DNA from: a virus | Taxonomy: Duplodnaviria > Caudoviricetes | Direction: 5' to 3' (one strand) | DNA: 25,855 nt | IMG/VR virus record: IMGVR_UViG_3300048598_000462 | Span: 1-25,855 of that record | In this document: positions 1 to 19,657 of the stretch, piece by piece | Layout: every line of letters begins with the position of its first letter | Position numbering within the stretch: the stretch's first letter is position 1 | The notes under the pieces: model-generated | Databases searched by the model: none | What the model was told of the DNA's origin: nothing | Seen by the model: only the letters and a program-made list of their open reading frames with translations | Translations under genes and position numbers: made by a program

Positions 1-41
1 TCAAGGCTGAAACAGGGGTTCGATTCCCCTAGGGAGCGCCA
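1..41 (+). tRNA. 3' half of tRNA-Glu (5' part lies upstream of the window); integration target
   Basis: TCAAGGCTGAAACAGGGGTTCGATTCCCCTAGGGAGCGCCA contains the end of the anticodon arm, T-arm AGGGG-TTCGATT-CCCCT, acceptor 3' strand and CCA at 39-41. It resembles alphaproteobacterial tRNA-Glu. The anticodon (TTC or CTC) is cut by the window edge. Confidence 0.85.
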
Positions 42-1134
42 AGCTAGCCAGATTTGCCAATAGCTGCAACGTGTTAGAGTCAAGGTTGGCTATCGTTTTT
101 TGCGGAGTGTCTAACCGCGCAATCGCAGACTCGGCCAGTCGCGCTTGATCGACGGCGCGTGTGTATGTCTCGACCTCCTGCAGGTTCTTGTGTCCGGTGA
201 TGGCTTGGATTTGGTGGGGCGTACAGCCTGCCTCGGCGAGGCGACGGCACGCGGCATGACGCAATCCGTGCGGGCTTGAATCGGAAGGCAGGCCCGCTGC
301 GCGCGCAGCGTCACGCAACCAGTTCGTGAAGCCCTTGGCGCTTCGGTCCTTGCCCGTGATGGTGGCGAGGAAGGTTTTTCGGTCGCGTGGCACCAGATCG
401 ATGTGGTGCTGCAACTCGGCGTGGATCGGAATGCGCAGGTGCGTCTTGTGCTGTGACTTCACCGTAGTGATATGGATCGCGCCGTCCTTGATGTGCTTCC
501 ACCCGACGCGCACCACGTCTGAACGCCGTAGTCCGGTATAGAGCAATAGTTCAAGCGCAAGTCGGTACGTCGTACCTTCCTTCCATTTCGCGCGGTAGGC
601 CGTGATGTCGGCCTCGGTCCAACTGCGATAGCTCTTCTGATCGTACTTGACGCGCTTTGCCCGCTTGATCGGATTCTCGGCCGCAAGGCCCGCGCCAATG
701 GCGTATTCGAATACGCTGTTCAGGCGCTTTCGCAGGATGTTCGCGGCGGCGGGGGTCTTGGCCATCGAATCCATGATGGCATTGACGTGCCGCGTCTCAA
801 GGCTGGCGAGGGACTTCTCACCGTGCTCGTTGCGAAAATGCTCCAGAACGCGCCGGTAATTCATCTTGGATGAAGCCGACAGCCGCTTGTACTCGGCGCT
901 GGAATAATAGCCGGCGATGGCCGACGAGATGCTGCCCGCGGGATTGCGCGTGACAAGCACCTCGCGCGGCTGGTCGCTCACCACCGCGTTGTAGGCATCC
1001 CAAAACGCCTTGCTGCCGACAGGGCCGGGCAGCGCCATACGTTCCGTACCCGGCTTGCGCAGATAGATCCGCTCAATCCCGCGGCGATCAATGTACCTGT
1101 GAACCCACCGGGGTTTCTTCGTTTTGTCGCGCAT
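1..1134 (-). CDS. int: Tyrosine integrase (377 aa from ATG 1134); C-terminus runs through attL into the antisense of the tRNA
   Basis: Catalytic motifs YTGLRRSD (R), TVKS (K), HGLRH, TGH and ETY; N-terminal arm-binding-like region. The start at MRDKTKK is preferred over 1206. Confidence 0.93.
   Translation of the reverse strand: MRDKTKKPRWVHRYIDRRGIERIYLRKPGTERMALPGPVGSKAFWDAYNAVVSDQPREVLVTRNPAGSISSAIAGYYSSAEYKRLSASSKMNYRRVLEHFRNEHGEKSLASLETRHVNAIMDSMAKTPAAANILRKRLNSVFEYAIGAGLAAENPIKRAKRVKYDQKSYRSWTEADITAYRAKWKEGTTYRLALELLLYTGLRRSDVVRVGWKHIKDGAIHITTVKSQHKTHLRIPIHAELQHHIDLVPRDRKTFLATITGKDRSAKGFTNWLRDAARAAGLPSDSSPHGLRHAACRRLAEAGCTPHQIQAITGHKNLQEVETYTRAVDQARLAESAIARLDTPQKTIANLDSNTLQLLANLASLALPRGIEPLFQP
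27..42 (+). repeat. attL core, 16-bp direct repeat CCCTAGGGAGCGCCAA
   Basis: Identical to 19642..19657. It is the tRNA 3' end and lies within the 3' end of the integrase ORF. Confidence 0.9.
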
Positions 1135-1384
1135 TGAGGACACCGTCCCATGGATTGTGCGTTTGCGGCTCGGCCGGAATGTCGCCGAATAGCCGGTCAA
1201 GATCATGTCGATCCCAGATTACCACGCCAAGCATCTGCCGCGGTGGCGGAATGGCGCCCGCTTTGCGTTGAGCGTCGAAATGGCTGGGGCTGATTCCGAG
1301 ATACCTTGCCGCATCAACCCTACGCAGGCCGCGGGGGACAATGCCCCCGCGCGTATTGTCGTTGTGGTGTGTGAGGGAGGTCAT
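1088..1384 (-). CDS. xis: Excisionase / AlpA-like winged-HTH protein (98 aa)
   Basis: PRGLRRVDAARYLGISPSHFD...GAIPPP...VIWDRHDLDRLF; directly upstream of int; TGATG coupling to the upstream gene at 1384. Confidence 0.8.
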   Translation of the reverse strand: MTSLTHHNDNTRGGIVPRGLRRVDAARYLGISPSHFDAQRKAGAIPPPRQMLGVVIWDRHDLDRLFGDIPAEPQTHNPWDGVLNARQNEETPVGSQVH

Positions 1385-1983
1385 CAGTGCCCCCATACTG
1401 GCTGGCGAGAAGTACTAGGGACAACGCCATGCGCAGCCCTCATGAACTTTACGCCCTTCTTCAGCATTTGCTTTTGCCAAGCCCCTCGCCGCCAGTACGG
1501 CACACCGCGAAGTGACTCTGCCTCAGGCCAACATGTCTGCCAGTCTGTCACGGTCTCGCCGCTCTCTATGTCGAGGGCATCGACGATCCACTCCGGCTTG
1601 ATCCAGCCGAAATATACGTGCCACCTATCGGCCGCGTCGGTGCCGGACGTGCGGCGCGCCGACGATTTTAGGAATGCGATAGCTTGAGGTGTGACGTGAT
1701 CCGGTGCCCAATCGGCCCACCTCACTAGGCGTCCGTCGTCTGCGGGGACGTCAACGGTAAGACGGAAGCGTTGCTTGTCCAGAGCACTAGTGTCGATGCC
1801 GTGACCGCTAGGGTTCGGACTTGTAGTGAACCAGACACCGACAAGGCCAGCGGTACTAGTGGTGTCGAGCATGACATCACCGACCGTCAGGCCGTGCTTG
1901 GCGATACCGCGGAGGTATTCCCCAGCGGTGTAGTGGTAGAGCCGCACGCATGAAGGTGCAGGCATAGCAATATGTTCGGGCAT
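1384..1983 (-). CDS. Hypothetical protein with ADP-ribosyltransferase-like (H-Y-T / KptA-type) motifs
   Basis: LYHYT...I...GL...GVWFT and a late WHVYFGWIKPEWI segment resemble the ART-fold strand pattern; TGATG-coupled to xis. Confidence 0.55.
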   Translation of the reverse strand: MPEHIAMPAPSCVRLYHYTAGEYLRGIAKHGLTVGDVMLDTTSTAGLVGVWFTTSPNPSGHGIDTSALDKQRFRLTVDVPADDGRLVRWADWAPDHVTPQAIAFLKSSARRTSGTDAADRWHVYFGWIKPEWIVDALDIESGETVTDWQTCWPEAESLRGVPYWRRGAWQKQMLKKGVKFMRAAHGVVPSTSRQPVWGH

Positions 1984-2051
1984 GGGCGCGCCTCGCTAGA
2001 ATTGAATCCAGGTTGATTGCCCCCGTTAAGGCACGGGCGGCGCGCCACCAC

Positions 2052-2082
2052 TATATATACCGGATAACGCACCAAAGTCAAG
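2052..2082 (-). promoter_or_regulatory. Putative sigma70 promoter for the ART-like gene, xis and int
   Basis: Minus strand CTTGAC-N17-TATATA, close to the rhizobial CTTGAC-N17-CTATAT consensus, about 70 nt upstream of ATG 1983. Confidence 0.55.
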
Positions 2083-2090
2083 ATGTAGTA

Positions 2091-2432
2091 TCAGACTGCC
2101 GGCTGTTGCCACTCGATTCCCCGTTTAAGTACGGGGCCGAGCGCATCCCGAAGCCGCAGCGAGTCCGCGATCTCCATCCATGGCCCATAAAGGGACGTGA
2201 GTGCGCCGACCACATCAGGCGTCGGTCCCGCGTGCGCCAACTGCTGAGTAATGGTGAGTATCTGGGCAGTAAGTCCGCCCTGGACTTCATCAATCCACTT
2301 CTTAGCTTCGGTGCGGCGGAATCTCGGCTGGCAACTGAAGGCAGCGATAATGTTGTCGAGGGTCTGTAGGACGTCGTTAATCGCAAGAAGGTCGTCAGTA
2401 TCGTAAGCGTACTCGTGCGGTTGATACGTCAT
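2091..2432 (-). CDS. Hypothetical protein (113 aa)
   Basis: ATGA-coupled to the upstream ORF; plausible helical protein; no motif recognised. Confidence 0.65.
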   Translation of the reverse strand: MTYQPHEYAYDTDDLLAINDVLQTLDNIIAAFSCQPRFRRTEAKKWIDEVQGGLTAQILTITQQLAHAGPTPDVVGALTSLYGPWMEIADSLRLRDALGPVLKRGIEWQQPAV

Positions 2433-2740
2433 GCTGCACCCCCAAGACGCTGATGGTCTGCACGCAGGCCGGCGCGCATGGCGTCGGCAAATTCATCGCA
2501 AGGGCCAACGTCGACATAGTCCCGAATGAAGAACAGGGCCTTGGCAGCAATCTCCTGCGCTGTGCGGGCGGGAGCCTTGGCAATGTCGAAGCGAACGGCG
2601 CCGGCCGTCAGGCAGATCTGGTCGATTGTGGCGCCCGAGAATGCGCCGACGTCGACGAACTCAGTGAGTCGATTATGGAGAGAGATGAGGTCGGAAACAG
2701 ATTCGGGTGGTGATTCTGTGATATTGATTTGGGTAGCCAT
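2429..2740 (-). CDS. Hypothetical prophage protein (103 aa)
   Basis: Good SD (TAGGAG) before ATG; PARTAQEIAAKA segment of a kind common in small alphaproteobacterial prophage proteins. Confidence 0.7.
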   Translation of the reverse strand: MATQINITESPPESVSDLISLHNRLTEFVDVGAFSGATIDQICLTAGAVRFDIAKAPARTAQEIAAKALFFIRDYVDVGPCDEFADAMRAGLRADHQRLGGAA

Positions 2741-2810
2741 CGATCGCTCCTAAACAGCGTTTGTGGTTAGGGCCGGTGCGAAAGTGGAGGCTTTTGCCCG
2801 GCCTGATTAT

Positions 2811-2856
2811 TTGTTACACCGGAATCATGGCTAAGTCAATATCGGTGACACCGAAA
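2811..2856 (-). promoter_or_regulatory. Putative leftward promoter overlapped by operator-like repeats
   Basis: Minus strand TTGACT(2839-2834)-N17-TAACAA. Repeats TTACACCGGAA (2814-2824) and TGACACCGAAA (2846-2856). Palindrome TCGGTG-A-CACCGA (2842-2854). Confidence 0.5.
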
Positions 2857-3018
2857 AAGAAGAGGGGCCGCCCCGCAACCGGGCGAGACCCTCACGTGAC
2901 TGCGCGTCTGCCGCAGGAATTGATAGACGCTATCGAGATATGGGCAGAGCGGAACGATGTTAGTCGGTCTGGCGCTATCCGTTTACTTATCGAGGCTGGA
3001 TTGAAGGGAAAGAAGTGA
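2827..3018 (+). CDS. Ribbon-helix-helix (CopG/Arc-like) regulator, 63 aa
   Basis: KKRGRPATG followed by VTARLPQELIDAIEIWAERNDVSRSGAIRLLIEAGL (beta-alpha-alpha pattern). Confidence 0.8.
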   Translation: MAKSISVTPKKKRGRPATGRDPHVTARLPQELIDAIEIWAERNDVSRSGAIRLLIEAGLKGKK

Positions 3019-3299
3019 TGCGAGGCACAGCAACCATCATCGTAAACGGCGTTGAAAAGGGCGAAGCAGAATTCACGACGGTCGGCTTGGAGAACATGAG
3101 ACGAGGCCAGCCCAGCGGCGAACTGTACTGCAAACCACAATGGTTCATCAAAGATGGCGGCTTTGGCCTTCATGATGCAGCGCAGCTTAAACTTGCATCG
3201 GGTGAGACCGTGAATATCACCGTCATGCCATCGTTCGAGTCTCCGCTGCCATTCTCGTTTGCCGATCAGAACATTCCTCCCGCCCTGCTTAAAGTCTAA
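3015..3299 (+). CDS. Hypothetical protein (about 94 aa, beta-rich)
   Basis: Start overlaps the RHH stop (GTGATG); no motif recognised. Confidence 0.6.
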   Translation: MMRGTATIIVNGVEKGEAEFTTVGLENMRRGQPSGELYCKPQWFIKDGGFGLHDAAQLKLASGETVNITVMPSFESPLPFSFADQNIPPALLKV

Positions 3300-3362
3300 T
3301 CCCCTCCCTCCCGCCCGCCGCTATAATCCCCGCGGGCCAACTGGAAGGGAGAGGAAACCAAA

Positions 3363-3575
3363 ATGAGTGCTTTTAACAGTCCACAATTCGCGACTCACGG
3401 CAATCCGGATGGGAGCCAGAATGTAACTGTTTCTTTCAAGAGTTCTGGTGGATACCCTAACGTAAACGTATCATTCAAAGACCATTCCGCACCAAACGAA
3501 ACCAACGCAGCGGAGCAATCTCGATGGCGCGCAAAAGCAAAAGAACTTCTAACTCAGGCCGCTGCTGCCTGTTGA
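3363..3575 (+). CDS. Hypothetical accessory protein (70 aa, AT-richer than the structural genes)
   Basis: Strong SD GGGAGAGG and a TATAAT at 3322-3327 upstream. Confidence 0.6.
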   Translation: MSAFNSPQFATHGNPDGSQNVTVSFKSSGGYPNVNVSFKDHSAPNETNAAEQSRWRAKAKELLTQAAAAC

Positions 3576-3706
3576 TCTGGTTTATCTTTTAGCTTTTCCT
3601 CTAAAAAAGAAACCCGATATCCAAGGACATCTTCTACGGCGAATACAGCGCTGGACAGGCGGGCCACCTCCTGCTCCAGCGCCTCAATGCGCTCCTCTAC
3701 CGTCAT
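3554..3706 (-). CDS. Small coiled-coil protein (50 aa), last gene of the structural operon; not in the ORF track
   Basis: Translated by hand: MTVEERIEALEQEVARLSSAVFAVEDVLGYRVSFLEEKLKDKPDQQAAAA*. SD GAGGA upstream. Confidence 0.6.
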   Translation of the reverse strand: MTVEERIEALEQEVARLSSAVFAVEDVLGYRVSFLEEKLKDKPDQQAAAA

Positions 3707-3716
3707 CACTCATTCC

Positions 3717-4070
3717 TCACTGTTGAAACACCGCATCGAACAACGCCGGACTCATCGGACGCGCGCTCACCTTATCGCCGTTCTTCGGTCCAGCGGCCAG
3801 CGTCAGGTACTCACGATCCAGCGCGCGAATGATGTCAGCCTCCCAAGGCCGGATGGCCTCACCGCTGATGCGCGCCAGCGCGAGCATGTCGGTGTATGTA
3901 ATGGGGCAGGGGCCGAACGACGCGCCGCGCTGGTCGTTTAGCTTCAGAAACAATCCCCATACGCGAAGGCCGGCATAGGGAATCTCTGGACCGTCAAGAC
4001 GGCCTGGATTTCCGATGTGCCAGCGCAGAACGGATAGAAGATCCTCGGTCAGAACTTCTGTGTCAATCAT
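3717..4070 (-). CDS. Tail assembly chaperone-like protein (gpT-type C-terminal part), 117 aa
   Basis: WGLFLKLNDQR...PCPITYTDMLA...PWEADIIRALDREYL resembles the second ORF of siphovirus G/GT chaperone pairs; TAATG coupling at 4070. Confidence 0.6.
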   Translation of the reverse strand: MIDTEVLTEDLLSVLRWHIGNPGRLDGPEIPYAGLRVWGLFLKLNDQRGASFGPCPITYTDMLALARISGEAIRPWEADIIRALDREYLTLAAGPKNGDKVSARPMSPALFDAVFQQ

Positions 4071-4663
4071 TAGACCTGGCCTGCCTTGAAGCTGATGGTT
4101 GTGTACAGTCCCGAAATCCGCTGCGTGATGGATTGCGGCATGAGCGCCATGCGGCACGACGGCTTCTTAAGCGTCACTGGTTCGCCTTCCGTTGTGCCGG
4201 GCCAAGGTGGTGGTCGCACCGCAAACTCGCCCGTCTCGCCGTCGCTGTCGGCTGTAGCCGCCTCGACAACTTGGTGCAGGACGCGGCGGCCTTGCACCTC
4301 CAACGACAAGTAATCACCCGGAGATAGCTGAAATCCGTTGGGCAAGTTCGCCAGCGCCATCTTCGTGCCGCTCGCCGACAACACCTCGGCTTCGTCGTCG
4401 AAATCGCCATCGGCATGCGCGCGCGGGTAGGGACGCCGCAAGTCGTACGCTTCAAATTCGCCGATCACACCGTTAAGGGCGTTCAGGCTGGCCTCAAACG
4501 CAAGGGCGTCGTCCGCGTTCATGGGCGCCGTGGTGTATTCCGCGGACCATAGGGCGGGGCCGAAGTCCTTGCCGTAAGTTGTGCCGCTGGCTGTGCGCGA
4601 CAGCTCCTGGCGCGAGATCAATTGGAAAACCTGATCCGCGTATCTGACTGAATCAAAGATCAA
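4070..4663 (-). CDS. Distal tail (Dit)-like minor tail protein
   Basis: Directly after the tape measure; 197 aa; SRTASG...GPALWSAEY...L.G....F..YD.RRPYP pattern typical of post-TMP proteins. Confidence 0.65.
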   Translation of the reverse strand: MIFDSVRYADQVFQLISRQELSRTASGTTYGKDFGPALWSAEYTTAPMNADDALAFEASLNALNGVIGEFEAYDLRRPYPRAHADGDFDDEAEVLSASGTKMALANLPNGFQLSPGDYLSLEVQGRRVLHQVVEAATADSDGETGEFAVRPPPWPGTTEGEPVTLKKPSCRMALMPQSITQRISGLYTTISFKAGQV

Positions 4664-6855
4664 GCTAACTGCCTCCTCTGTTTTGCATTCCGCACCGCTG
4701 CAACCACCTTGCTATTGAACTCCGCATCGCGCTTCGCGAGTTCGGCGCGCATCGTGTTGACGGTGGAGTCGTCGGCATTGCCGTTGATATTGATCGTTGT
4801 GGATCCGCCTGTGATGCTTATCGGCGAACAGCCCATAGGAACCGGAACGGAAAGCGCCGCGCCCGCGCGCATGGCTTCCACGGCGCCAACGCCGCCGGCG
4901 CGCTTAACGTCGGCTTGGCTCCAAACGACCTCGCCTTTGTGAACCACACCGGCCGGTTGATTTTTGCTGCCTGGCCCGGTGTATCCGCCTTCGTCGAAGC
5001 CGAACAGCTTGCCGATACCGCCGAGCAAGCCACCGCCTAGCCCACCGCCAGCGCTCGAGAACGCTGAATCCCACAGCTTGTTGGCCGCCATTTCCATCAG
5101 CTTGTCGGCAATCTTACCGAGAGCGTTTACGCCGGCTTGCTTGAAGGCGTCCCATGCCGACATGCCGTTGCGCAGGTTCTGGCCGAACTCGACAAACAGG
5201 CCGCGGTTGACGTCGCGTCCAATGTTGCCCAGCTCGCGCATGCCATTCGCGGCACGCATGCCCGCGGCTTCAACGCTCGATAGGGCAGTGGCAACATCGG
5301 GATAGATGCCCCTCAGTTGCGAGGCAATGGCAACGTCTTCCTGCGAAAGGAAGGCCGTCTGCTTATCGAACTTGATCTGCGCGGCAACCTTGGCCTTTTC
5401 CATTGCAACGGCGGCGCCGCCATACGCTGCGGCAACTTCGTCGATCACCTTGCGCTGTTCGGCTGTGACAACGTTTTCGCCAAGGCCCGCGGCCGCGTTC
5501 GCCTGCTTAGCAACTGTCTCCAGCTGCGCCGCGATCTTCGCCTTGTCGCGCGCCTCGGTACCGAGATCGATTGCCGCAGCCTCGGCCTGCAATGCCGCGG
5601 TGCGCTTCTCAATCGTGCCGACATTCGTGTCGAAGCGATCGACGTCGGATCCGCCGGTTGGCTTTGGCGTCGGCCTATCGCCCGTGCCAGTCTGCGCCGG
5701 CATCTTCGGATAGTTGTTGGGCTGGCGTTCCAGGTCATCAATCTGCCCTTGGATTTCATCGCGTTTCTTGCGATTCATTTCCGCGGTAATGACGTCGGAC
5801 GGAACGCGCAAACCCGTGTCAATTCCAAACACGCTGATCTTGTTGCCGTTCTTGATCGCGTCGTCGAGTTCGTCCCGCTGCGTCTTCAAGCGAGACGCCT
5901 GATTCCCGAGAATACCGAACTTGTTGGCAAGCTCGACGGCCTGCGCGATGTATCCGACGATCTCGCCCCAAAGATTTTTGATATTCAGAATGACGCTGGA
6001 GAGGTCATCGAATGACGGTTTCAACGAGCGGGATAGCCGCTCCTCTGACGTCTTAAGCTGGTCGTCGACCTCTTTCGCGCGGGCGACGAGGGCGGACGAA
6101 TAGATTCCATCGTCCGAATTCGCCATCTGCTGCATGGTCGACAGGATGGCTTCCGCGGACGTGCGGCCCTGCCGAATGCGATCGACGAATGCCGAGCCAA
6201 ACATGCGCTCGCCCAGATCCAGTGCAGCCGCCCGCTGCCCGATCTGCTCGAGCTGCACCATCGCCTTGAGGACAGCCTGAACTTTAGCTTCCTGCGAGTC
6301 GGCCTCACGGAACAGCACCAGGCCTTCAAGCTGCTGACCAGAGCTACGCGCCAGAGTCTCGTTGTAAATGCGAAGCGCGCGCTCGACGTCTGTAATGCGG
6401 TCCTTTCCGGTGTCCCACGCGGCAAGATCGATCGGCGACTTGTCTTTCGTCGCGTTGAAGGCATGCTGTAACGCACCTTCCAGGTCGCCGACGTCGACCT
6501 GTAGCTTGCGGGCCTCCGCGCTGAAGGACTGGAAGAAGCCAGCTGACACGCCGACGTTCTGGGATTTGTTCTGTAGCTCGACCATATCGGAAAGCTGATC
6601 CCGCGCAGCACCGATAGCATCGCCCATGAGCTTCGCCGCGCCGACGACAAGAGCGATACGGCCGGCAAGTTTTAACGCGCCTGATGCGGCACCACTGAAT
6701 GCAGCGGTTGCGGCGCTTCCAGCCAGCTCCTTATTCACGTCGAGAAAGTGTTGCGCAACCTTACGCGCCGCCGTCTTCGCAAGCGACGACGTTTCGTTCA
6801 TCTGCTTCCTAAAGTCGTCAAGATTGGCGCCGATGCGCCAGGATAGTGCCGGCAT
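4660..6855 (-). CDS. Tail tape measure protein (731 aa)
   Basis: Long Ala/Gln-rich helical protein with the lambda-like C-terminal motif FDEGGYTGPGSKNQPAGVVHKGEVV. Confidence 0.9.
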   Translation of the reverse strand: MPALSWRIGANLDDFRKQMNETSSLAKTAARKVAQHFLDVNKELAGSAATAAFSGAASGALKLAGRIALVVGAAKLMGDAIGAARDQLSDMVELQNKSQNVGVSAGFFQSFSAEARKLQVDVGDLEGALQHAFNATKDKSPIDLAAWDTGKDRITDVERALRIYNETLARSSGQQLEGLVLFREADSQEAKVQAVLKAMVQLEQIGQRAAALDLGERMFGSAFVDRIRQGRTSAEAILSTMQQMANSDDGIYSSALVARAKEVDDQLKTSEERLSRSLKPSFDDLSSVILNIKNLWGEIVGYIAQAVELANKFGILGNQASRLKTQRDELDDAIKNGNKISVFGIDTGLRVPSDVITAEMNRKKRDEIQGQIDDLERQPNNYPKMPAQTGTGDRPTPKPTGGSDVDRFDTNVGTIEKRTAALQAEAAAIDLGTEARDKAKIAAQLETVAKQANAAAGLGENVVTAEQRKVIDEVAAAYGGAAVAMEKAKVAAQIKFDKQTAFLSQEDVAIASQLRGIYPDVATALSSVEAAGMRAANGMRELGNIGRDVNRGLFVEFGQNLRNGMSAWDAFKQAGVNALGKIADKLMEMAANKLWDSAFSSAGGGLGGGLLGGIGKLFGFDEGGYTGPGSKNQPAGVVHKGEVVWSQADVKRAGGVGAVEAMRAGAALSVPVPMGCSPISITGGSTTININGNADDSTVNTMRAELAKRDAEFNSKVVAAVRNAKQRRQLA

Positions 6856-7181
6856 CAGGCCGCGTCCTCATCATCGAAGAAATATGTCGACAGCACAGCG
6901 AACGCGGTATTCGCGCTCGGTCCCATAGCTTGGCCGTGGACATGCTCGGCAATCACTGCGTCGGCTTCCGCCTCCGTCATTCCGCCACCGATCAAGCCCA
7001 GCTTCAGGACGCGCTCGACGTCATCCGGCGAAAACACGGACTCGTCAAATCGCTTCATTGCAGCGGCAGGCGTGCTGCCATACTGGCCCGGAAACGGGTG
7101 CTGGGCTTCCGCCAAGAGCCATCGAATGCGAGGGGCGCGCAGATCGAAGTTATGAGTTCCGCCAGTCCATGTAATGTTCAT
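6855..7181 (-). CDS. Tail assembly chaperone, GTA-gp10-like
   Basis: ITWTGGTHNFDL...DDVERVLKLGLIGGGMTEAEA is the pattern of GTA-gp10-type chaperones; immediately before the TMP. Confidence 0.75.
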   Translation of the reverse strand: MNITWTGGTHNFDLRAPRIRWLLAEAQHPFPGQYGSTPAAAMKRFDESVFSPDDVERVLKLGLIGGGMTEAEADAVIAEHVHGQAMGPSANTAFAVLSTYFFDDEDAA

Positions 7182-7636
7182 TCTGAAAGTGCCTTCTCGA
7201 CTGCCGCCGCAATGTTGGCGTTGATTTCGTCTTCCATCGCGCGCACCGTTGGATAAAAGAACGGCTCGGCCGGATGGTCTGTCGCGCCAAATTCAATGGC
7301 CATGCTGTAATCGTAGGAAACGCCGGCGCCATCAGCCTGTTTGGCAATGCCTTGGTTGCTGCGCCCGTCGATAACGACTTCGCGCTCATAGCCCGTATCG
7401 CGGTCATAGAACTTCGTCGTCGCCGCGCCGCCCGCCTCGACATAAAGCGTGAGATCATTTCGCGTACGGCGCACCCTGACGGAATCGCGGAGCGCGCCCG
7501 TCTTCACTGGGGCGGCGGCCTTTACCGCATTGGCCAGCCTGTCAGCCTCGGCGTGGATGGCAGTAGCCAATTTCCGCTTCACCCTAAATTCTAAGTCCGC
7601 GATCTGCCGGTCTATTTCGTCGTCAGAGCCAGCCAT
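7178..7636 (-). CDS. HK97 gp10-like neck/tail component (152 aa from ATG 7636)
   Basis: APVKTGALRDSV...IEFGATDHPAEPFFYP motif. Confidence 0.85.
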   Translation of the reverse strand: MAGSDDEIDRQIADLEFRVKRKLATAIHAEADRLANAVKAAAPVKTGALRDSVRVRRTRNDLTLYVEAGGAATTKFYDRDTGYEREVVIDGRSNQGIAKQADGAGVSYDYSMAIEFGATDHPAEPFFYPTVRAMEDEINANIAAAVEKALSE

Positions 7637-10639: not shown

Positions 10640-10720
10640 CTCCAATTATCTGCTCTCTTGCGCCGAGGGAAATCACCGGTCTTTCGCAAAAATCTCAAAC
10701 TTTTTGCCCACTCCCCGTGG
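10640..10720 (-). other. Candidate cos/packaging site downstream of the HNH gene
   Basis: Rare non-coding gap in a tightly coupled operon, directly after HNH; G-run then AAAAAGTTT...GACCGG...GCGCAAGA, like the post-HNH region of HK97-type cos phages. Position inferred. Confidence 0.4.
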
Positions 10721-11060: not shown

Positions 11061-11554
11061 TAGTCTTCGTCGCCAGTAGTCGCAGCGACCGGCACGATGT
11101 TCGAGTTGATCTCAATCGTAGCGTTGAGTTTCTGTACCGTGTTGGCCTCGCCACCTGCTTCCTGCGCAGAAGTAACAAGGCCGATAAAGTAGCGCATGGA
11201 TGGCGTTGCACCGACGCCAGCCGGTTTGTCGTTCAACTCGACCTTGAATGCGTAGTTGTTCGAGGTCTTCTCGGCGGCGATCAGGGCAATCTGACCGGCA
11301 TCGGCAGCGTTGATGGCAAACACGTTTTGCATCTGACCAGCATTGCGCGTGCCCTTTTGCTTTACGTCTCGGCCGCGATTGATGAGCGACGTGGTGATCA
11401 CCTGAGCGGTGTCACCGAAGCTGCCCATTTGCTCCCAACCGTCAATTTCCACCCACGTCTGCGACGTGAAATCGGCCTCGACGAAGTCGGTGGCCTTGTC
11501 CGAAAGGACGCCGCCGATGTACAGCTTGCAGCCTGCTACGGGGTAAAGAGACAT
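11060..11554 (-). CDS. Tail tube (major tail) protein, 164 aa
   Basis: GSFGDTAQVIT...KQKGTRNAG...DAGQIALIAA...YAFKVELND...YFIGLV...IEINS is typical of alphaproteobacterial siphovirus tail tubes; SD AGGAGG. Confidence 0.85.
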   Translation of the reverse strand: MSLYPVAGCKLYIGGVLSDKATDFVEADFTSQTWVEIDGWEQMGSFGDTAQVITTSLINRGRDVKQKGTRNAGQMQNVFAINAADAGQIALIAAEKTSNNYAFKVELNDKPAGVGATPSMRYFIGLVTSAQEAGGEANTVQKLNATIEINSNIVPVAATTGDED

Positions 11555-11566: not shown

Positions 11567-11956
11567 TCAGGCTGCGACCGGCGCAAGGGCCGGGCTTCCG
11601 AGAATGAACACCGCACCGGCGGCGATGGACGTACCCGATTGCTTGGTGATCACGGCGCGGACATAGCGCTTTTTGCCGATGTAGCCCTGCCGATAGACAG
11701 ATGATGCTGCAAGCGCGGCCGGTAGCGAGCCGATCAGGTTGTCGGCGGCGACGTCGGTGAAGTCGCCGTCAGTGGTTGTGTCGCTTTCCTGCATTCGGAT
11801 GTCGTAGAGGCCATCCGATGCAATCGCGCCGGTGTTGACAACCATCAGGGCGGATTTGAAGCCTTGCGTATCAACAGCGCTGCCCTTGAGCGTCGCCGTC
11901 TGCACCGCAGGCACGAGGGAGGCGACAACTTTGTTGTCGGTATAGGTATCAAACAT
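11567..11956 (-). CDS. Putative head decoration protein (129 aa from ATG 11956)
   Basis: Directly after the MCP; beta-rich VDTQGF...QESD...FTDVA...GYIGKKRYVR; SD AAGGA. Function inferred from position. Confidence 0.6.
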   Translation of the reverse strand: MFDTYTDNKVVASLVPAVQTATLKGSAVDTQGFKSALMVVNTGAIASDGLYDIRMQESDTTTDGDFTDVAADNLIGSLPAALAASSVYRQGYIGKKRYVRAVITKQSGTSIAAGAVFILGSPALAPVAA

Positions 11957-12005: not shown

Positions 12006-12012
12006 TGCCGCG

Positions 12013-13227
12013 TTAGCTGGCAGCGACCTTGAGGAACTTCACCGCGTTGAAATCGCCGGCAGCGCCGCCGACACGCTTGTAGGTGTCGAAAAGGATGCGG
12101 CCCTTTTGCGTGACCTCGTCACGGGTGATCCGGATGCCGGAGCGATCGACCACGACATAAGCCTGACGGTGATCGCCAAAGCTGATCGGCAACGTACCGG
12201 CGCCGATGTCATCATAGCCGTCATCGATGGTTACCGGATAACCGAGCAAAGGATGCTCGACGCCCTCGATCAGGTTGCCGGTGGGCGCCCACAGATAGCG
12301 TCCATTGGCATCAACGATCGTGCGCAGCCGCACCGCTGTGTTGCTGTTCATGACGAACCGCGCATTTGCCTTGTACGGCGTGCGGACCGCAGCAACCAGT
12401 TTCACCAGTGCGGTGACAAGGTTGGCATCGGTCGGTGCCGAGGCGTGACCGGCCGGCACATATTGATACTTGCCCCAAGCCCGGACGAAGTCCTTCTCGT
12501 TGGTCACGTCATAAGTGAGGAAGCCTTTCGGCTTGCCCATGACGCCGTCACCGCGAAGGAACGCTTCGCCTTCGGTCTCGGCGAAGTCGTGAGTGGCGTT
12601 ATTGATCAGCCAGGATGCGATATCGACCTGTACATCATCGAGAAGCTGGCGCGTCGCAGCCGGCGCGGCATAGAGTTCGGCCACGCCGTAGGATTGCTTG
12701 ATGAGTTCCGGTCGAGCCGTGTCCTGCGGGCGGTCATCGCGCTCGGCGACCCACTGAGCGCCGCGCTTGCCCATGGAGTAGAAGCGTTCATACGTAGAGG
12801 TGCCGATCGACACGACTTCCGCCAGACTGCGCATCGGCGAAATGTCGGTCATCAGGGCGCGGATGCTAAGGTCGATGGAGGGCAAAACCATCCAGCCGCC
12901 ATCCACCGCATTGTCGGAAGCCGCAGCCTTCACCTCGACATCGGAACCGGTGCGGATGAAAGAGCCGAGGGCTTTCTTCTCGATGTCGGCCTGCTCGTCG
13001 CCGGCCTTGGTGCCTGCCGGGCGATTGGCCTTCTTCTCGATTTCGGCGAGGCGGGTTTCGAGCGCCTTGACGTCGACAACGTCGTCCTTCTTTTCGGGCT
13101 CGCTCTTGGTTTCGAGCTTGCTTAGGCGGGCGTCGACGGTCTTGGTGAAATCGTCCAAAGCCTTCTGCACGATGCCAACGGGATCGTCGGCCTCGCTCTT
13201 AAATTCAATGGGAGAAACGTGTTTCAA
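12013..13227 (-). CDS. Major capsid protein, HK97 fold (404 aa from TTG 13227)
   Basis: N-terminal coiled-coil delta domain, DGGWMV, EGEAFLRGDG..KPKG, DANGRYLW, LLGYPV, FGD, KRVGG; SD AAGGA before TTG. Confidence 0.95.
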   Translation of the reverse strand: MKHVSPIEFKSEADDPVGIVQKALDDFTKTVDARLSKLETKSEPEKKDDVVDVKALETRLAEIEKKANRPAGTKAGDEQADIEKKALGSFIRTGSDVEVKAAASDNAVDGGWMVLPSIDLSIRALMTDISPMRSLAEVVSIGTSTYERFYSMGKRGAQWVAERDDRPQDTARPELIKQSYGVAELYAAPAATRQLLDDVQVDIASWLINNATHDFAETEGEAFLRGDGVMGKPKGFLTYDVTNEKDFVRAWGKYQYVPAGHASAPTDANLVTALVKLVAAVRTPYKANARFVMNSNTAVRLRTIVDANGRYLWAPTGNLIEGVEHPLLGYPVTIDDGYDDIGAGTLPISFGDHRQAYVVVDRSGIRITRDEVTQKGRILFDTYKRVGGAAGDFNAVKFLKVAAS

Positions 13228-13237
13228 AGTTAGTCCT

Positions 13238-13735
13238 TTAGGAAAGCGCCGCAGTGGCGCGTTGGATTGCAGCCGCAAGCGTGAGTGCTTCAACGGCAGA
13301 CTTTGCGCTGGTCACCCGAGCGCCGGGATGCATGGGGATCGTCACCAAGGACGCCTCCAGCAATTCCAATGATTTGATCGTGCGGCCACCGCCTGCGCGG
13401 TTACTGGCCTTCTTCGTGATAAAGCCGATCGAGATGCCCCGAACTGCGCCTGAGCGCACAAGAGCGCGTACCTCACGGGCGCGTGCAACATCATCAACTA
13501 GAAGATGGCCGGCAAGATGTAGTCCATCCGACTTCTCCGTTGCGATGTCCCAAGTACCGATCGGATCATTCATGTCGTGGCCGAACAGCATCGGAATCGG
13601 CAGCGACGCCTTGGCGAACGCACCTTTCTCGATGACGTCGCCGACGCGGTCAGGCTCGTTGAATTTCCAGGCCACGCCACTGATGGCTCCGGCATCGTCG
13701 GCGATGACCTTGGTTTCGATATAGAGGCGATCCAT
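13238..13735 (-). CDS. HK97-family prohead protease (165 aa from ATG 13735)
   Basis: DRVGDVIEKGAF, MLFGHD, GISIGF, LLEASLVTIPM. Confidence 0.93.
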   Translation of the reverse strand: MDRLYIETKVIADDAGAISGVAWKFNEPDRVGDVIEKGAFAKASLPIPMLFGHDMNDPIGTWDIATEKSDGLHLAGHLLVDDVARAREVRALVRSGAVRGISIGFITKKASNRAGGGRTIKSLELLEASLVTIPMHPGARVTSAKSAVEALTLAAAIQRATAALS

Positions 13736-13896
13736 CAAGCGGGCCTCGACAACACGGCGATGTCGAATTCCTCTTTCTGGAATTGCTCGCCATCGAACCA
13801 AACACATTCAACGCGCTCATCGCGCAGAACGCGCGTCACCGTCATCCACGGGCCACCCGTGGCGAGCCGGACGACGTCAGACTTGGAAAGCTTCAT
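13735..13896 (-). CDS. YodC/DUF2158-like small protein (53 aa); not in the ORF track
   Basis: Translated by hand: MKLSKSDVVRLATGGPWMTVTRVLRDERVECVWFDGEQFQKEEFDIAVLSRPA*. Coupled on both sides (ATGA and TGATG). Confidence 0.8.
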   Translation of the reverse strand: MKLSKSDVVRLATGGPWMTVTRVLRDERVECVWFDGEQFQKEEFDIAVLSRPA

Positions 13897-14282
13897 AGTG
13901 TCCTCATGTAGTAAACATCGCGCTTCTGGCTGAACGCTTCGACCTGCTCACGAATGAACCGGGCCGACGTCAGAAGCCGCACGACGTTTGTGAAGTTGAA
14001 GTCCACCGACTTGCCATCGCGCTTGACGTTCCAGCCGATGACAAGACGCGCGAGTTGCTCGACTTCCATCCGCTCTAGTTCTTCGGCGGGCGGACGATGG
14101 CGGAAGGACATCAGTTCGTCGGAATACTGCAGCCGCGCGCGGCGTGCGGTCTTGCTGTCCGGACCGGCGATGGTCAGGACGATGTCTGTCATCTTTTCCC
14201 CGGTGACGGGGTGGACGATCGTTAGTTCGGCACCACGGTCCTGTGATTCGACGAGGTTGTCGACGTGCGCGAGGTCGTTCAC
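13893..14282 (-). CDS. Tail assembly chaperone-like protein (gpG-type), located in the head cluster
   Basis: GAELTIVHPVTGE...LTIAGPDS...LARLVIGWN...FIREQV resembles siphovirus tail chaperones; GTGA overlap with the portal stop. Confidence 0.6.
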   Translation of the reverse strand: MNDLAHVDNLVESQDRGAELTIVHPVTGEKMTDIVLTIAGPDSKTARRARLQYSDELMSFRHRPPAEELERMEVEQLARLVIGWNVKRDGKSVDFNFTNVVRLLTSARFIREQVEAFSQKRDVYYMRTL

Positions 14283-15442
14283 GCCGCGGCCTCTTGCGGC
14301 TTGTTGTCGTTCGCAGGCTTATCGACGGTGATGTTGCGGTTTCCGTACTTGTCGCCACCGTCGTAGGGCGGAAGCCCAAGCCACTCGCGACCGGTGTTCG
14401 GGTTGATGGTCTCGCTCGCAATGAGAGAGTTAATCGCCGTTGCGCGTTCCGTTAGACTGGCGCGGGTCAGGTCGTCACGGTCGAATTTGAACCGCAAACC
14501 GGAGGCGCGTTCCTCGTCAGAGAGCAGGGCGCGATCGAGGGCGGACTCCAAAGCTTTCAACCACGGCTCCACCGCATACTGCAAGAATTCGAGCTGTTTC
14601 TGAGAAGCATTCGCGTAACTCGACTTCGTGAGGTCGCCCAACATCGCCGGACTGATATTGAACGCACGGCCGATTTCCTCGATCTGGAAACGCCGCATTT
14701 CGAGGAACTGGGCGTCGACCGACGAAAGCTGCATGGCCTTGAACGTCGAGCCATCAAACAGGATGGCGGTCTTCCCGGCGTTCTCGGCACCCTCATGCGC
14801 GGCGCGCCAGCCGGCCTTCATCGCCTTCCACGACTTTTCGCTGATGCCCTTCGGCACTTCGATCACGCCGCCGGGACGTGCGCCGTTCTTAAATAGCCGC
14901 GATGCATGGGCGGTCATCACAAGTGACGCGCCGATCGCCTCGCGTGCCAACGAGACAGGGCACTTCGCGAAGGGGCCGCGAAGATGCACGATGTCCGACG
15001 CCGCGACAGGTCGGCCGGAAACGCGATACAGCAACTCGCGCGTCTCTTCCTCTTGAAAGCCGATCGTGCCGCGTCGATAATTGATGATCTCGCGGACTTC
15101 GCCGTTAACACGGTTGACCCATGCCAGCGCGCCCGCGTCATGCAGCAACGCCTCGGCGACCATGTCCCGGATGAACTCGTAACCGGAAGTCCAGGCATTT
15201 ACTTGGCCGCGGAGCAGGTCGAGCGCGGGGTGATTGTCGACGCGTTCCTCTTCGCGGGTGATATTGACATCGAGCGCCGCGCACGATTCTGAAATGAGTT
15301 TAACACCGGCCTGAACCGCCGTTTCGCAAAGGGCGGTCGCTGCCGTGACGCCAGCGCCGGGCGTCGAGCCGGTGAACGCCTCAAGGATTGCGGCGTCATC
15401 GTCCGGGATCGGCTCGATTGCTTTGGTGGTAAACCAACCCAT
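14279..15442 (-). CDS. HK97-family portal protein (387 aa)
   Basis: DIVHLRG, FKNGARPGG, ENAGKTAIL, DAQFLEMRRFQIEEIGRAFNISP, NTGREWLGLPP. Confidence 0.95.
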   Translation of the reverse strand: MGWFTTKAIEPIPDDDAAILEAFTGSTPGAGVTAATALCETAVQAGVKLISESCAALDVNITREEERVDNHPALDLLRGQVNAWTSGYEFIRDMVAEALLHDAGALAWVNRVNGEVREIINYRRGTIGFQEEETRELLYRVSGRPVAASDIVHLRGPFAKCPVSLAREAIGASLVMTAHASRLFKNGARPGGVIEVPKGISEKSWKAMKAGWRAAHEGAENAGKTAILFDGSTFKAMQLSSVDAQFLEMRRFQIEEIGRAFNISPAMLGDLTKSSYANASQKQLEFLQYAVEPWLKALESALDRALLSDEERASGLRFKFDRDDLTRASLTERATAINSLIASETINPNTGREWLGLPPYDGGDKYGNRNITVDKPANDNKPQEAAA

Positions 15443-16801: not shown

Positions 16802-17347
16802 CTAAGAGACAAGTTTTTCAAAGTTTTTTGCGGCTTGCTTCACCGCCTCCTTGCCCTTTCGCTCGGCGTATTTGCCGGCATAACCAGCGAACTCTCCGAT
16901 TTGCCTAAAGGTATATGGCCCAACAGCCATGTCGAGAATCTCAGCATCTCGGCCAAGCTTCTGACGCACCTGCCGAACGTGAATCCGATGCAGCATCGCG
17001 TCCTCGGTCGGCAGCCCTTCGTCGACGAGGGCGGTTTTCTCTCCGCGCTTTACCCGCTCGAACCTCTCTCCATGCGAGTCGGCGCTGTAGGACTCCGTCG
17101 TGCGCTCATAATCCGGATACATCGCGCAGTGTTCATCCTCTGCCATCGAGCGTATCAACTCCATTGCATCAACTGCATCGATGCGCGTCTCCGGGTTCTC
17201 AATCTTCACAGTGGGGTCGTTGTCGTTCGCCACCATCTGCACATCCTCCTCGTTGTATTCAATCATCCAGTCCCGAATGCTCTTGAGCACGGGCTTGTCA
17301 TCGTCGCGCGCGAGTGCGCTCAACGTCGGGTAGGGATTGGCGGCCAA
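16802..17347 (-). CDS. Putative late transcriptional activator with sigma-region-4-like HTH
   Basis: SD GAGGAGG before TTG; C-terminal LGRDAEILDMAVGPYTFRQIGEFAG HTH; sits between the rep and late genes. Confidence 0.6.
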   Translation of the reverse strand: MAANPYPTLSALARDDDKPVLKSIRDWMIEYNEEDVQMVANDNDPTVKIENPETRIDAVDAMELIRSMAEDEHCAMYPDYERTTESYSADSHGERFERVKRGEKTALVDEGLPTEDAMLHRIHVRQVRQKLGRDAEILDMAVGPYTFRQIGEFAGYAGKYAERKGKEAVKQAAKNFEKLVS

Positions 17348-17842: not shown

Positions 17843-19273
17843 TCAGGCCGCGTCGTCTTCCATCCAATCAGGCCAATCGTCCGGCTGCGGTGGTAGTGGC
17901 GCGGGTTCATCCTCGAATAGCTCGGGATGCGCGGCGTCCCACTCGCGGCGGCCTGCCTCGGCACGCCACTGCGCTTCCTTCCGGCGCTGCCATTCGTTTA
18001 GGTGCGGTGACAACGGCGGCAGGGCATCGATGCGCGCCTTGATTGCCGCCGCCTCGGATTCCGTCACGGGCTTGGACTCCGGCTCTGGCATCGGCTCTGG
18101 CTCGGGCTTCACCGGCAATGGCGTGTCGTCGTCTGGCCGTACCTCTGGGGGTTCAAATCCGTCGCCTGTGATGACGATGGTTCGGCCGTGTAGTTCGCTG
18201 CTGTCATCTATCTGCGCGAGGCCCGCAGCGGCAACGAGCGCTGCGAGCTGACGCTGGCCGGCTTCCTGCTTCTCGCTGTCGGGGTGTTCTATCACGATGA
18301 CGTACTCGCCAGCCTTGTCGGTGGTGAAGCGCAACTTAGTCACGTCGCCCGCCGTCACCACGTCGGCCGCGGTAATCCTGGCCGGCCCACCGGCCCGGCT
18401 CGGCTTGCGTGGTTTGGGGTTCTGATCGGAAACTCCAGCCTTGGCCTTCGTCTTGACCCGGCGCTCGACCTTGTTGAAGCCGCGGGGGGCGGGCTTGAGC
18501 CACATTTCATCCTTGAGCCAGCGCACCGCCGACATGCGAGGGGCGTTTGGATCATTCTGCTGCGCCCATGCTTGATGCCAATCCGCCGCGGCGTCGATCA
18601 CCATGGCGCGATCTGTATCCGGCGGCAGGGCATCCCACGCGCGTTTGATTGCCGCCCTGGCTGGCTTGCTCATGTCGGCGGGGCAATAGGCGGTGAGAAA
18701 CGCTTGTAACCCTTCCACCGCCGTCTCGCCCGCAGCGGGGGCCGCCAGGCCACCCGCTGCGGGCGACGCCGTAGGCGGGCGGTGTCCATCTCTATCTATC
18801 AGGAGACCGGCTGTAAGCCGGTCCTGTAGATAGGAGGGGGTGACATCTGTGTCACCGTATTCGGGAGATAAGGTGACACTTGGGTCCATTTCGTGGACCT
18901 GAATGTCATCCTTTAATACGGTGACAGTTGAGTCACCCTTTTGCGGAACTAGGCTGAAATTGGGTCGATACACCGTCGCGTGCCCGCGCGTCCCGGCGCG
19001 GACGACGTCGACGAATCCGAGGTGGGTGAGACGTTGTCGCGATCGGCCCACGGTGCGGTCGCACAGGCCGGTGAGCGCACAAATCTCCTCGTCGGAAACG
19101 AAACCGTTCCCGTATTGGCCGTGGTACCGCTGGATGATCTCGGCAAAAACGGCAAGGTCGGCCTTCTTGGTGTCAGGATGGTGCGCGGCAAGACGCAGCA
19201 ACTTGAATTGAACCCAGGCCTCGACATCATACGGCCGGGGCTTCCGCTTGGAGTAGGGGTTAGACTCGCTCAT
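17843..19273 (-). CDS. Replication initiator (N-terminal wHTH, iteron linker, replisome-organiser-like domain, DUF669-like domain)
   Basis: SDEEICALTGLCDRTVGRSRQRLTHLGFV wHTH; FLTAY...KRAWDAL...SAVRWLKDEMW; EAGQRQLAALVAAAG...DDSSELHG. Confidence 0.75.
   Translation of the reverse strand: MSESNPYSKRKPRPYDVEAWVQFKLLRLAAHHPDTKKADLAVFAEIIQRYHGQYGNGFVSDEEICALTGLCDRTVGRSRQRLTHLGFVDVVRAGTRGHATVYRPNFSLVPQKGDSTVTVLKDDIQVHEMDPSVTLSPEYGDTDVTPSYLQDRLTAGLLIDRDGHRPPTASPAAGGLAAPAAGETAVEGLQAFLTAYCPADMSKPARAAIKRAWDALPPDTDRAMVIDAAADWHQAWAQQNDPNAPRMSAVRWLKDEMWLKPAPRGFNKVERRVKTKAKAGVSDQNPKPRKPSRAGGPARITAADVVTAGDVTKLRFTTDKAGEYVIVIEHPDSEKQEAGQRQLAALVAAAGLAQIDDSSELHGRTIVITGDGFEPPEVRPDDDTPLPVKPEPEPMPEPESKPVTESEAAAIKARIDALPPLSPHLNEWQRRKEAQWRAEAGRREWDAAHPELFEDEPAPLPPQPDDWPDWMEDDAA
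18839..18937. repeat. Four 18-bp palindromic iteron-like units within rep (candidate origin)
   Basis: GGTGACA-TCTG-TGTCACC (18839), GGTGACA-CTTG-GGTCCAT (18872), GTGGACC-TGAA-TGTCATC (18893), GGTGACA-GTTG-AGTCACC (18920). Confidence 0.7.
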
Positions 19274-19481
19274 GCCGACACCCTCCGGCTGCCACCGCAG
19301 CGCGCGCCAGTTCGTCGGCCGTGGTGCGGTCGAACGTCAGGCTGTGCCCGAACACCCGCATGGAGCCATCCGGCTTGCGGATCAGGCTGACGTCCACGGC
19401 GCGCACGCCTGGGGCAATCTCGATATCGAGCGCGGCAATGCGCCGCCCGCCCGAACATGGGCGGACTTGAAGTATTTTCAT
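19260..19481 (-). CDS. Small beta-rich protein, SpoVG-like nucleic-acid-binding fold (tentative)
   Basis: IAALDIEIAPGVRAVDVSLIRKPDGSMRVF; SD AAGGA; overlaps the rep start. Confidence 0.6.
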   Translation of the reverse strand: MKILQVRPCSGGRRIAALDIEIAPGVRAVDVSLIRKPDGSMRVFGHSLTFDRTTADELARAAVAAGGCRHERV

Positions 19482-19609
19482 GTTGAGGTATCCTTGGGTT
19501 TAAATGCGTCGCTGCTCGGCTGTTCCGAGTCTTCTCTCGCCGTAGCCACTTCGTTTTCTAAAACGACGCTATGCGACGCATTGGAAATCAGCGACGCCAG
19601 CACTTTCAA

Positions 19610-19622
19610 CAACGCATTGATA
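19610..19622 (-). promoter_or_regulatory. IHF consensus site in the att arm
   Basis: Minus strand TATCAA-TGCG-TTG matches WATCAANNNNTTR, about 20 bp from the attR core. Confidence 0.55.
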
Positions 19623-19641
19623 TCAATTGATTGCGCGCCAG

Positions 19642-19657
19642 CCCTAGGGAGCGCCAA
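19642..19657 (+). repeat. attR core of element 1 (displaced tRNA-Glu 3' end) and left boundary of element 2
   Basis: CCCTAGGGAGCGCCAA, identical to 27..42. Confidence 0.9.

Follow-up and report, generated by a model that had tools for sequence, protein, structure and literature searches.

A head- and tail-shaft-encoding integrative element is a probable phage satellite predicted to complete its tail on a helper's tip

Several phage satellites are known to encode part of the particle in which they travel. Phage-inducible chromosomal islands that form capsids (cf-PICIs), such as EcCIEDL933 and KpCIDSM30104, encode their own capsids and take whole tails (bioRxiv 10.1101/2022.09.08.507074, 10.1101/2025.02.11.637232). 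Alqurainy et al. define cf-PICIs as having no tail genes (bioRxiv 10.1101/2022.09.08.507074), and tail profiles are forbidden components of the SatelliteFinder cfPICI model (PMC10085698); He et al. require just that there be no complete tail module, and give a size of ~10-18 kb (bioRxiv 10.1101/2025.02.11.637232). The phage-inducible chromosomal island-like element (PLE) PLE11 of Vibrio cholerae has a partial tail pathway, comprising a tape measure protein (TMP), a chaperone and a hub, and forms chimeric tails with helper parts (PMC12987554). The EPIPs of Mycolicibacterium are small integrative satellites with TMP and head-tail joining genes, no holin and a tail length unlike that of the helper (PMC12822802), and MulchRoom and MiniFlayer are satellites with their own capsid and packaging genes (PMC10690885). 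Here we describe a 19.6-kb element, bounded by att sites, that lies in a 25,855-bp virus record (IMG/VR IMGVR_UViG_3300048598_000462, hereafter the window) cut from a 348-kb metagenome contig. The element encodes its own head together with a tail tube, a TMP and a distal tail protein (Dit), and has no recognisable tail-tip or lysis gene.

We put at roughly 65% the probability that the element is a phage satellite that builds a chimeric tail in the cell on the hub and megatron of a helper siphophage, and that leaves by helper lysis. This reading draws on the observed gene content and att bounds, on the absence, throughout the family, of any intact megatron or recognisable endolysin, on purifying selection, and on the fold and ancestry of the Dit. 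All of the named structural genes are present with open frames (Table 1), and 14 of the 18 junctions from the portal gene to the gene for a 50-aa peptide overlap or abut. These findings bear out an earlier reading of the DNA (the initial annotation), in which the portal, protease, major capsid protein, small and large terminase (TerS and TerL), HNH, neck, tube, TMP and Dit-like genes were described as intact and tightly coupled. That annotation recognised one chaperone-like gene; there are in fact three tail chaperone genes. Two of them, of G-type and T-type, are ~10 kb apart, and a frameshifted GT fusion is therefore impossible in this element. (In other members of the family described below, the G and T genes are adjacent, as in locus L077, or fused in frame, as in L005.)

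In PHROG, Pfam and NCBIfam scans, no open reading frame (ORF) in the window, the hypothetical ones included, matched a hub, central fibre, megatron, holin or endolysin family, or any other lysis family, and hydrophobic stretches occur only in shadow ORFs or in assigned structural genes. Beyond the 50-aa peptide there are ~2.2 kb of small genes (1384-3575), none of which matches a tip or lysis family. This region has room for a hub or a lysin, but not for a megatron. Thus the initial claim that the tip and lysis genes are missing after Dit stands, whereas the accompanying claim that there is no room for them holds for the megatron only.

The 16-nt att core occurs in the window at exactly two sites, 19,615 bp apart, with no third copy even when two mismatches are allowed, and none of 100 shuffles of the sequence gave such matches. 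Because the window holds two further 16-bp exact repeats, repeat length alone is little proof of an att site; the support comes from position, in that the left copy ends the 3' half of a tRNA gene and the integrase gene adjoins it. The tRNA half is truncated by the window start and aligns by eye with the tRNA-Glu that ARAGORN called in the related locus L095; on the window itself ARAGORN called no tRNA and Rfam found just a weak tRNA-like 3' fragment. The pair of cores, the shuffles and the position agree with the 19,615-bp circle that had been predicted. The integrase frame passes through att. In the integrated form it ends 8 residues later, inside the tRNA, and in the predicted circle it gains another tail of ~54 residues (the integrases of L002, L004 and L027 end inside the tRNA too); judging from this arrangement, the integrase end could act as an integration-state switch. 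Just past the distal att a second island starts (19701-25855), with genes for a DUF6538 tyrosine recombinase, an AbiJ-like protein, a C5 DNA methyltransferase, a 404-aa unknown protein and a resolvase; it is possibly a tandem island at the same tRNA.

The element belongs to a family. In the family to which the Nitrobacter genome G001 belongs, 41 of 401 sampled genomes hold TerL relatives at E < 1e-120, and a TerL profile found relatives in 28/401 genomes of the order and 5/401 of the class (the centre genome included). We infer from the TerL matches, and from the replication initiator (Rep), which shares 63% identity with the Rep of a head-only G166 element, that the host of the window element is probably a member of the same family. 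Among 50,697 sequenced phage records the best TerL match is 35.5%. None of the 51 family-level TerL matches lies in a complete phage, and those long enough have the portal gene first and TerS-TerL after the head genes. Nine order- or class-level TerL matches (the weakest included) and one at a contig end were left out of the family survey. From 138 loci, 2 without a TerL of 400 aa, 16 duplicates and 44 without a portal or a closed 3' side were removed, leaving 76, to which 20 order-level loci that had not been used in building the profiles were added (96 loci, two of which were later found to be duplicates).

The 96 loci consist of 75 that carry a TMP and 21 that are head-only. The TMP-bearing loci have a neck protein in 70 cases, a terminator in 69, a T-type chaperone in 68 and a tube in 25; a Dit or lambda-gpM-type Dit is present in 13, a lambda-gpI-like gene in 13, a hub in one and an intact megatron in none. 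Their 3' sides are closed by an integrase (38), a tRNA (14), or an att site or the end of the fetched DNA (23). Across all 96 we found no intact megatron and no recognisable endolysin, with a hub in one locus and tip-gene debris in one. Moreover, the tallied loci hold no free co-oriented ORF of more than 720 aa, and two sets of unassigned element ORFs (133 and 115) scanned against PHROG matched no lysis, hub or central-fibre family (nine phage controls behaved as they should, eight of them matching tail, lysis or unnamed families). Of the 50 TMP-bearing loci without a tube gene, 43 keep the T-type chaperone, which implies that a helper tube is used there.

Of 21 TMP-bearing loci that were extended, 19 have att repeats at a tRNA 3' end. 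Elements of like gene order and size occur in the Alphaproteobacteria; the att-to-att size in 22 cases is 14.9-20.8 kb (median 17.8 kb), and integrases, tRNAs and cargo differ. The 76 element TerLs form one clade (FastTree support 96, with phages and prophages as the only outgroups) with weak deep nodes, and head-only members are scattered among the tail-bearing ones. Taken together, the family is real, intact and widespread, and apparently undescribed. The initial annotation proposed a candidate new satellite class. The tip-less layout indeed recurs, but the combination of shaft and Dit marks one step along a continuum and not a separate class, as the frequencies of Dit and tube given above indicate.

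Several further observations were made in the family. The lambda gpI-like tip component directly follows the portal in the loci that have it (L007:1059-1760 and 12 others), and these have no central fibre gene. Some genomes have two or three members at different sites, namely G166 (L080, L089, L090), G066, G036, G203 and G215, and G070 has a head-only and a tail-bearing member. An unnamed protein family without a PHROG or Pfam match is inserted among the neck genes of L002 (7190-8830), L004 (5845-6633), L063, L067 and L098, and the slot after the last tail gene holds defence-like cargo in L003 (9851-10471), L184 (10941-11906) and L232 (13079-13864), matching PDC-S47, TIR effector and PD-T7-4 models. 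Three candidates were set aside: L226 was recounted as head-only when its TMP match proved to lie upstream of the element, L261 was not counted as a complete tail, its 1.5-kb contig showing a Dit but no hub, and a muramidase-like match in L322 was rejected as a lysis gene since it lies inside a 1211-aa TMP.

A few members depart from the tip-less pattern. L245 encodes a TMP, a Dit, a hub (12520-13086) that shares 56% identity with its counterpart in prophage locus L292, and a chaperone, with no megatron. In L250, short NlpC and megatron fragments follow the TMP (13989-14733) and are what is left of a tip cassette that has been trimmed. The head genes of L004, L095, L096 and L194 are interrupted by inserted fibre-like genes, and L247 has a minor tail gene near its portal. 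Across the family it is therefore the intact central fibre and lysis that are consistently absent, while some members do carry other tip-related genes.

When compared with L002, L003 and L004, the structural genes of the window element have dN/dS values of 0.03-0.23 at dS 0.5-3.5 (mostly 1-1.7), the values being 0.05-0.16 for Dit, 0.06-0.16 for TMP and 0.07-0.13 for tube. Selection on these genes is thus purifying and not relaxed. The three relatives have the same tip-less end and different cargo, and L004 also has another integrase and tRNA, so that the divergence most parsimoniously took place in the tip-less state. Since tip and lysis genes are missing after the Dit of close relatives too, the window copy is no lone deletion derivative. 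A non-coding motif is kept between HNH and TerS in 42 of the 75 TMP-bearing elements and occurs elsewhere at 0.023 per kb; phage vB_MseS-P1 has a similarly shaped motif between its own HNH and TerS genes. In HK97-like phages this gap holds cos, and the motif is a candidate cos site.

The identity of the window Dit was settled by its fold. The predicted model (pLDDT 85.5) matches T5/DT57C pb9 with E 3e-8 and TM 0.71, and a PDB sequence search with the Dit profile gave no match. Beyond the elements, 27 loci in 18 of 401 genomes matched the Dit profile, and in 27/27 a hub follows the Dit (26 by HMM, one by a 56% match to the L245 hub); a hub also follows the same-family Dit of phages vB_MseS-P1 and Aussie. 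In a Dit tree (46 sequences, 206 columns) the window clade comprises seven elements (UFBoot 97) and is sister, with support of 100, to Dits of complete tails that are 39-48% identical. The remaining element Dits fall among three or four further phage lineages, giving at least four places in all, and further elements have a lambda-gpM-type Dit. This scatter suggests that elements have captured Dit repeatedly, nearly always without the hub.

In the tails whose Dits are closest to that of the window, the gene order is Dit, hub, GNAT gene, megatron. (The GNAT acetyltransferase of these candidate helper tails, L263:2007-2456, L264 and L265, stands where other tails have an NlpC peptidase.) The likely helper is a temperate siphophage with a Dit, a hub (phrog_2048), a GNAT or NlpC gene and a megatron (phrog_5616). 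Of the two sources of tip and lysis named in the initial annotation, a helper phage or a gene transfer agent (GTA) of the host, a temperate siphophage fits the window copy better, and the GTA fits poorly because the Dit groups with prophage tails. For the parts that face the head (terminator, head closure, adaptor and neck proteins), identity to the phage and GTA proteins compared does not exceed 36%. A specific origin of the TMP C-terminus in the Dit donor was not supported, as residues 480-600 are no closer to a complete-phage TMP (57%) than to the TMPs of Dit-less elements (54-58%).

How such a satellite might work can be predicted from its genes. A helper would induce excision of the element and its Rep-driven replication, and HNH, TerS and TerL would cut the candidate cos at around 10.7 kb and package the DNA into a small capsid of the element's own. 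Inside the co-infected cell the element's TMP and Dit would join the helper's hub and megatron to form a tail initiator. Such an initiator requires TMP, Dit and Tal (PMC4493119), and the element encodes everything for it except the Tal-equivalent parts. The chaperones would load the element's own tube protein to a length set by its TMP; the terminator would cap the shaft to fit the element's head closure protein, reserving the tail for its own head; and helper holin and endolysin would release the particle. At ~0.15 nm per TMP residue, the tail would measure ~105-110 nm. Because the tube polymerises from the tip, assembly would have to occur while element and helper share a cell, whereas cf-PICIs capture their tails outside it.

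A number of points weigh against this reading or limit it. The mechanism is a prediction from genes; no att junction was seen in 4 read runs, although these offer short pieces at low coverage (the best public runs contained 6-19% of the words) and are not evidence of inactivity. Only a 25.9-kb slice of the 348-kb contig is in view, and the host and any co-resident helper lie outside it. The window Dit has no counterpart of ~8 N-terminal residues present in phage Dits, and of 33 genomes that bear elements just 11 were found to have a megatron of the matching family, in no case within an element. A tube without a Dit occurs in fourteen loci, so an own tube does not require an own Dit, and the association of the two (Fisher p 5e-5) is uncorrected for kinship. 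The dS values are near saturation. The L245 hub, found by a six-frame profile search, had escaped ORF picking for the PHROG scans, and small divergent tip or holin genes elsewhere may be missed likewise. Finally, the L250 fragments and the L245 hub show that deletion from longer tail cassettes took place in some lineages.

We next weigh four other explanations. In the first, which we regard as unlikely, the tail genes act mainly against the helper, with TMP, chaperones and Dit diverting or poisoning helper tail assembly or re-capping tails, and the tail is largely helper-made. PLE11 targets helper tail assembly (PMC12987554), 48 of the 75 TMP-bearing loci have neither tube nor Dit, and the relatives' cargo slot carries the defence-like genes described above. 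The window copy, however, keeps every shaft component in one coupled operon under purifying selection, and in 57 of 58 elements the TMP-containing frame is 609-949 aa long, in keeping with a ruler that functions.

Supply of tip and lysis by the host's GTA is improbable for the window copy. A GTA-type Dit (DUF2460) is found in 29/33 element-bearing genomes, the GTA clusters examined have hub-, NlpC- and megatron-like genes with a lysozyme-like gene downstream (labels assigned in part by position), and the capsid protein has the RcGTA capsid as its nearest solved relative; the explanation is still plausible for members without Dit or tube. The window Dit is nevertheless of phrog_1302 and not DUF2460, and groups with prophage tails; neither it nor the C-terminal third of the TMP nor the tube protein has a BLAST match in ten GTA clusters, and the GTA TMP is just ~190 aa. 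We give equally little credence to plain cf-PICI behaviour, in which the element would release heads without tails that then acquire whole free tails, its own tail genes being passengers. The 21 head-only members, interleaved with tail-bearing ones in the TerL tree and sharing Rep and early genes with the window, would favour it, but the tail genes are under purifying selection and a terminator is present in 69/75 TMP-bearing loci as against 0/17 head-only loci tallied. Least probable of all, and already largely refuted, is a defective prophage from which the block of tip and lysis genes has been lost: although L250 has tip-gene debris and the 4 low-coverage read runs showed no activity, the same tip-less layout is found in relatives at dS > 1 with different tRNAs and integrases, the size range is narrow, no sequenced-phage TerL exceeds 36%, and such elements alone make up the TerL clade.

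Beyond the window copy, we tentatively suggest, at somewhat less than even odds, that a Hyphomicrobiales satellite lineage forms a gradient from head-only, through head and ruler, to head, shaft and Dit (once with a hub), in which a Dit repeatedly captured from different helper tail lineages serves as a swappable adaptor whose exchange sets helper choice and host range. If the satellite reading is correct, a private head and shaft would be plugged into whichever helper tip the Dit fits, a new division of labour in which head and shaft are the element's own and the receptor-binding tip and lysis are borrowed. Such a family would be filed as broken prophages, since the standard detector rejects elements with tail genes, despite its presence in about a tenth of the genomes of one bacterial family. 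It would also offer a natural series of phage-satellite intermediates, and natural chimeras with which to map the tolerance of the Dit-hub, chaperone-tube and terminator-head interfaces.

The remaining features of the element are listed in Table 1. The initial annotation reported no CI; there is indeed no CI-type repressor, but a ribbon-helix-helix (RHH) regulator is present, divergent from the operon that ends in the excisionase-like helix-turn-helix (HTH) gene and the integrase gene. The 246-aa protein encoded upstream of the portal consists entirely of helices and contains an HTH like that of Sf6 TerS; a fold search with it gave no significant match. The 199-aa cargo protein had no match in Pfam, PHROG or PADLOC. 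Two 16-bp palindromes within the Rep gene (18840-18855 and 18921-18936) are a candidate origin on the basis of their sequence, the degenerate pattern being at chance level genome-wide. Promoter and terminator scans were at chance level.

Table 1. Features of the element (coordinates in the window)
Feature	Coordinates	Strand	Basis or remark
tRNA gene 3' half (Glu-like), integration target	1-41	+	sequence; alignment with ARAGORN-called tRNA-Glu of L095
att core, tRNA side	27-42	+	exact repeat
Tyrosine integrase, probable start ~1134; frame through att, stop inside tRNA	1-1206	-	phrog_1 E 3.6e-45, PF00589
Excisionase/AlpA-like HTH protein	1088-1384	-	HTH_17 E 0.003, weak; same gene precedes integrase in L002, L003, L004, L184
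Cargo, 199 aa, possibly ADP-ribosyltransferase fold	1384-1983	-	nearest named Atlas clusters PARP/DarT 0.93, Arr 0.91; lead only
Two small unknown genes, 113 and 103 aa	2091-2740	-	103-aa gene: 36% homolog in L003
RHH regulator, candidate repressor	2827-3018	+	PF01402 above cut-off; 94% in L003, 47% in L004
Two small cargo genes, 94 and 70 aa	3015-3575	+	no meaningful family match
50-aa coiled-coil peptide, end of structural operon	3554-3706	-	similar peptide after tail assembly chaperone in L259
Tail assembly chaperone, stand-alone T-type (TAC_18)	3717-4070	-	PF23812 above cut-off; T-type role inferred
Dit	4070-4663	-	phrog_1302 E 1e-32; model fold match to T5/DT57C pb9
TMP, 731 aa	4660-6855	-	phrog_24
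Tail assembly chaperone TAC_11 (GTA-gp10-like)	6855-7181	-	PF11836
Neck / tail completion protein (HK97 gp10-like)	7178-7636	-	phrog_5, PF04883
TerL	7623-9257	-	PHROG and Pfam matches
TerS, P27 type	9217-9591	-	PF05119
Head closure protein	9588-9911	-	PF05521
Tail terminator	9911-10327	-	phrog_176, PF11367
Head-tail adaptor (gp6-like)	10320-10634	-	PF05135
Conserved non-coding motif, candidate cos packaging site	10640-10716	-	kept between HNH and TerS; cos role inferred
HNH endonuclease	10695-11060	-	phrog_144
Major tail (tube) protein	11060-11554	-	phrog_158 E 4e-22
Probable capsid decoration/cement protein	11567-11956	-	phrog_5707; Atlas structure neighbour cluster with Bbp16, TM 0.72
HK97-fold major capsid protein	12013-13227	-	PF05065; nearest solved relative RcGTA capsid, E 3e-59
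Prohead protease	13238-13735	-	PF04586
53-aa small gene, coupled both sides	13735-13896	-	no NCBIfam match
Tail assembly chaperone, G-type, between portal and protease	13893-14282	-	phrog_313 E 8e-10
Portal	14279-15442	-	PF04860
Three coupled genes upstream of portal, 54, 97 and 246 aa	15442-16636	-	head-only elements also have homologs
181-aa unknown, candidate late activator	16802-17347	-	inferred from position and C-terminal helix pattern; no family match
Rep with HTH	17843-19273	-	phrog_270 weak, HTH_36 weak; 63% to Rep of head-only L080/L159
73-aa early gene	19260-19481	-	~40% homologs in L091, L161, L010
Frame becoming integrase C-terminus after excision	19478-19657	-	in frame through att
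att core, distal copy	19642-19657	+	exact repeat

Compared with complete temperate siphophages, the element has no hub and central fibre/megatron after Dit, and no holin or endolysin. The temperate alphaproteobacterial siphophages vB_MseS-P1 and Aussie share its Dit family, and P1 also has the TAC11 chaperone; at 39-41 kb, however, they follow Dit with hub, peptidase, megatron and fibres, and P1 has annotated lysozymes as well. Unlike an RcGTA-like GTA, the element has an integrase and att sites and no DUF2460, and hosts carry a separate GTA cluster. In our literature search, which left most subscription journals outside, we found no satellite described with its own head, tube, TMP and Dit. 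MulchRoom differs in its helper-length tails and MiniFlayer in a short fibre that grips the helper, and that description mentions no TMP (PMC10690885). EPIPs, compared by their published description, resemble the element in being small and integrative, with TMP and head-tail joining genes and no holin; they differ in size (11 kb), in a serine integrase, in being reported without tail proteins and in belonging to another phylum. PLE11 has in common with the window element a partial tail pathway of its own and a chimeric tail (predicted for the window element). It uses helper capsid protein, tube and sheath in a contractile tail, whereas capsid, terminase, tube, terminator and Dit are all encoded by the window element itself, which has no hub; PLEs in general are without their own capsid and depend on ICP1 in Vibrio cholerae, whereas the relatives of the window element are in Alphaproteobacteria. 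PLE11 and the EPIPs are thus partial precedents.

The closest likeness is to cf-PICIs. Like them, the element is an att-bounded chromosomal insertion of perhaps similar size with an integrase, a replication gene, its own capsid, protease, portal, adaptor and connector, HNH-TerS-TerL after the head genes, and no lysis genes; as for a PICI-type regulator and replicase, it has the weak HTH_17 gene beside the integrase, the RHH gene and the HTH Rep, some relatives having a primase-type Rep. At 19.6 kb (14.9-20.8 kb in the family) it can be set against the ~10-18 kb given for cf-PICIs. The 21 head-only members look like cf-PICIs, and the SatelliteFinder tables may list such members from Alphaproteobacteria. 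The element differs from cf-PICIs in its terminator, neck, tube, TMP, three chaperones and Dit, in its portal-protease-capsid order (capsid-protease-portal in cf-PICIs), and in a tail that is predicted to be built in the cell and not attached as a finished structure. By its tail genes it falls outside the cf-PICI definition of Alqurainy et al. and SatelliteFinder, while its tail module is incomplete in the sense of He et al. By analogy with these systems, the element may be best regarded as cf-PICI-like, extended into the tail, with a chimeric assembly that would resemble that of PLE11.

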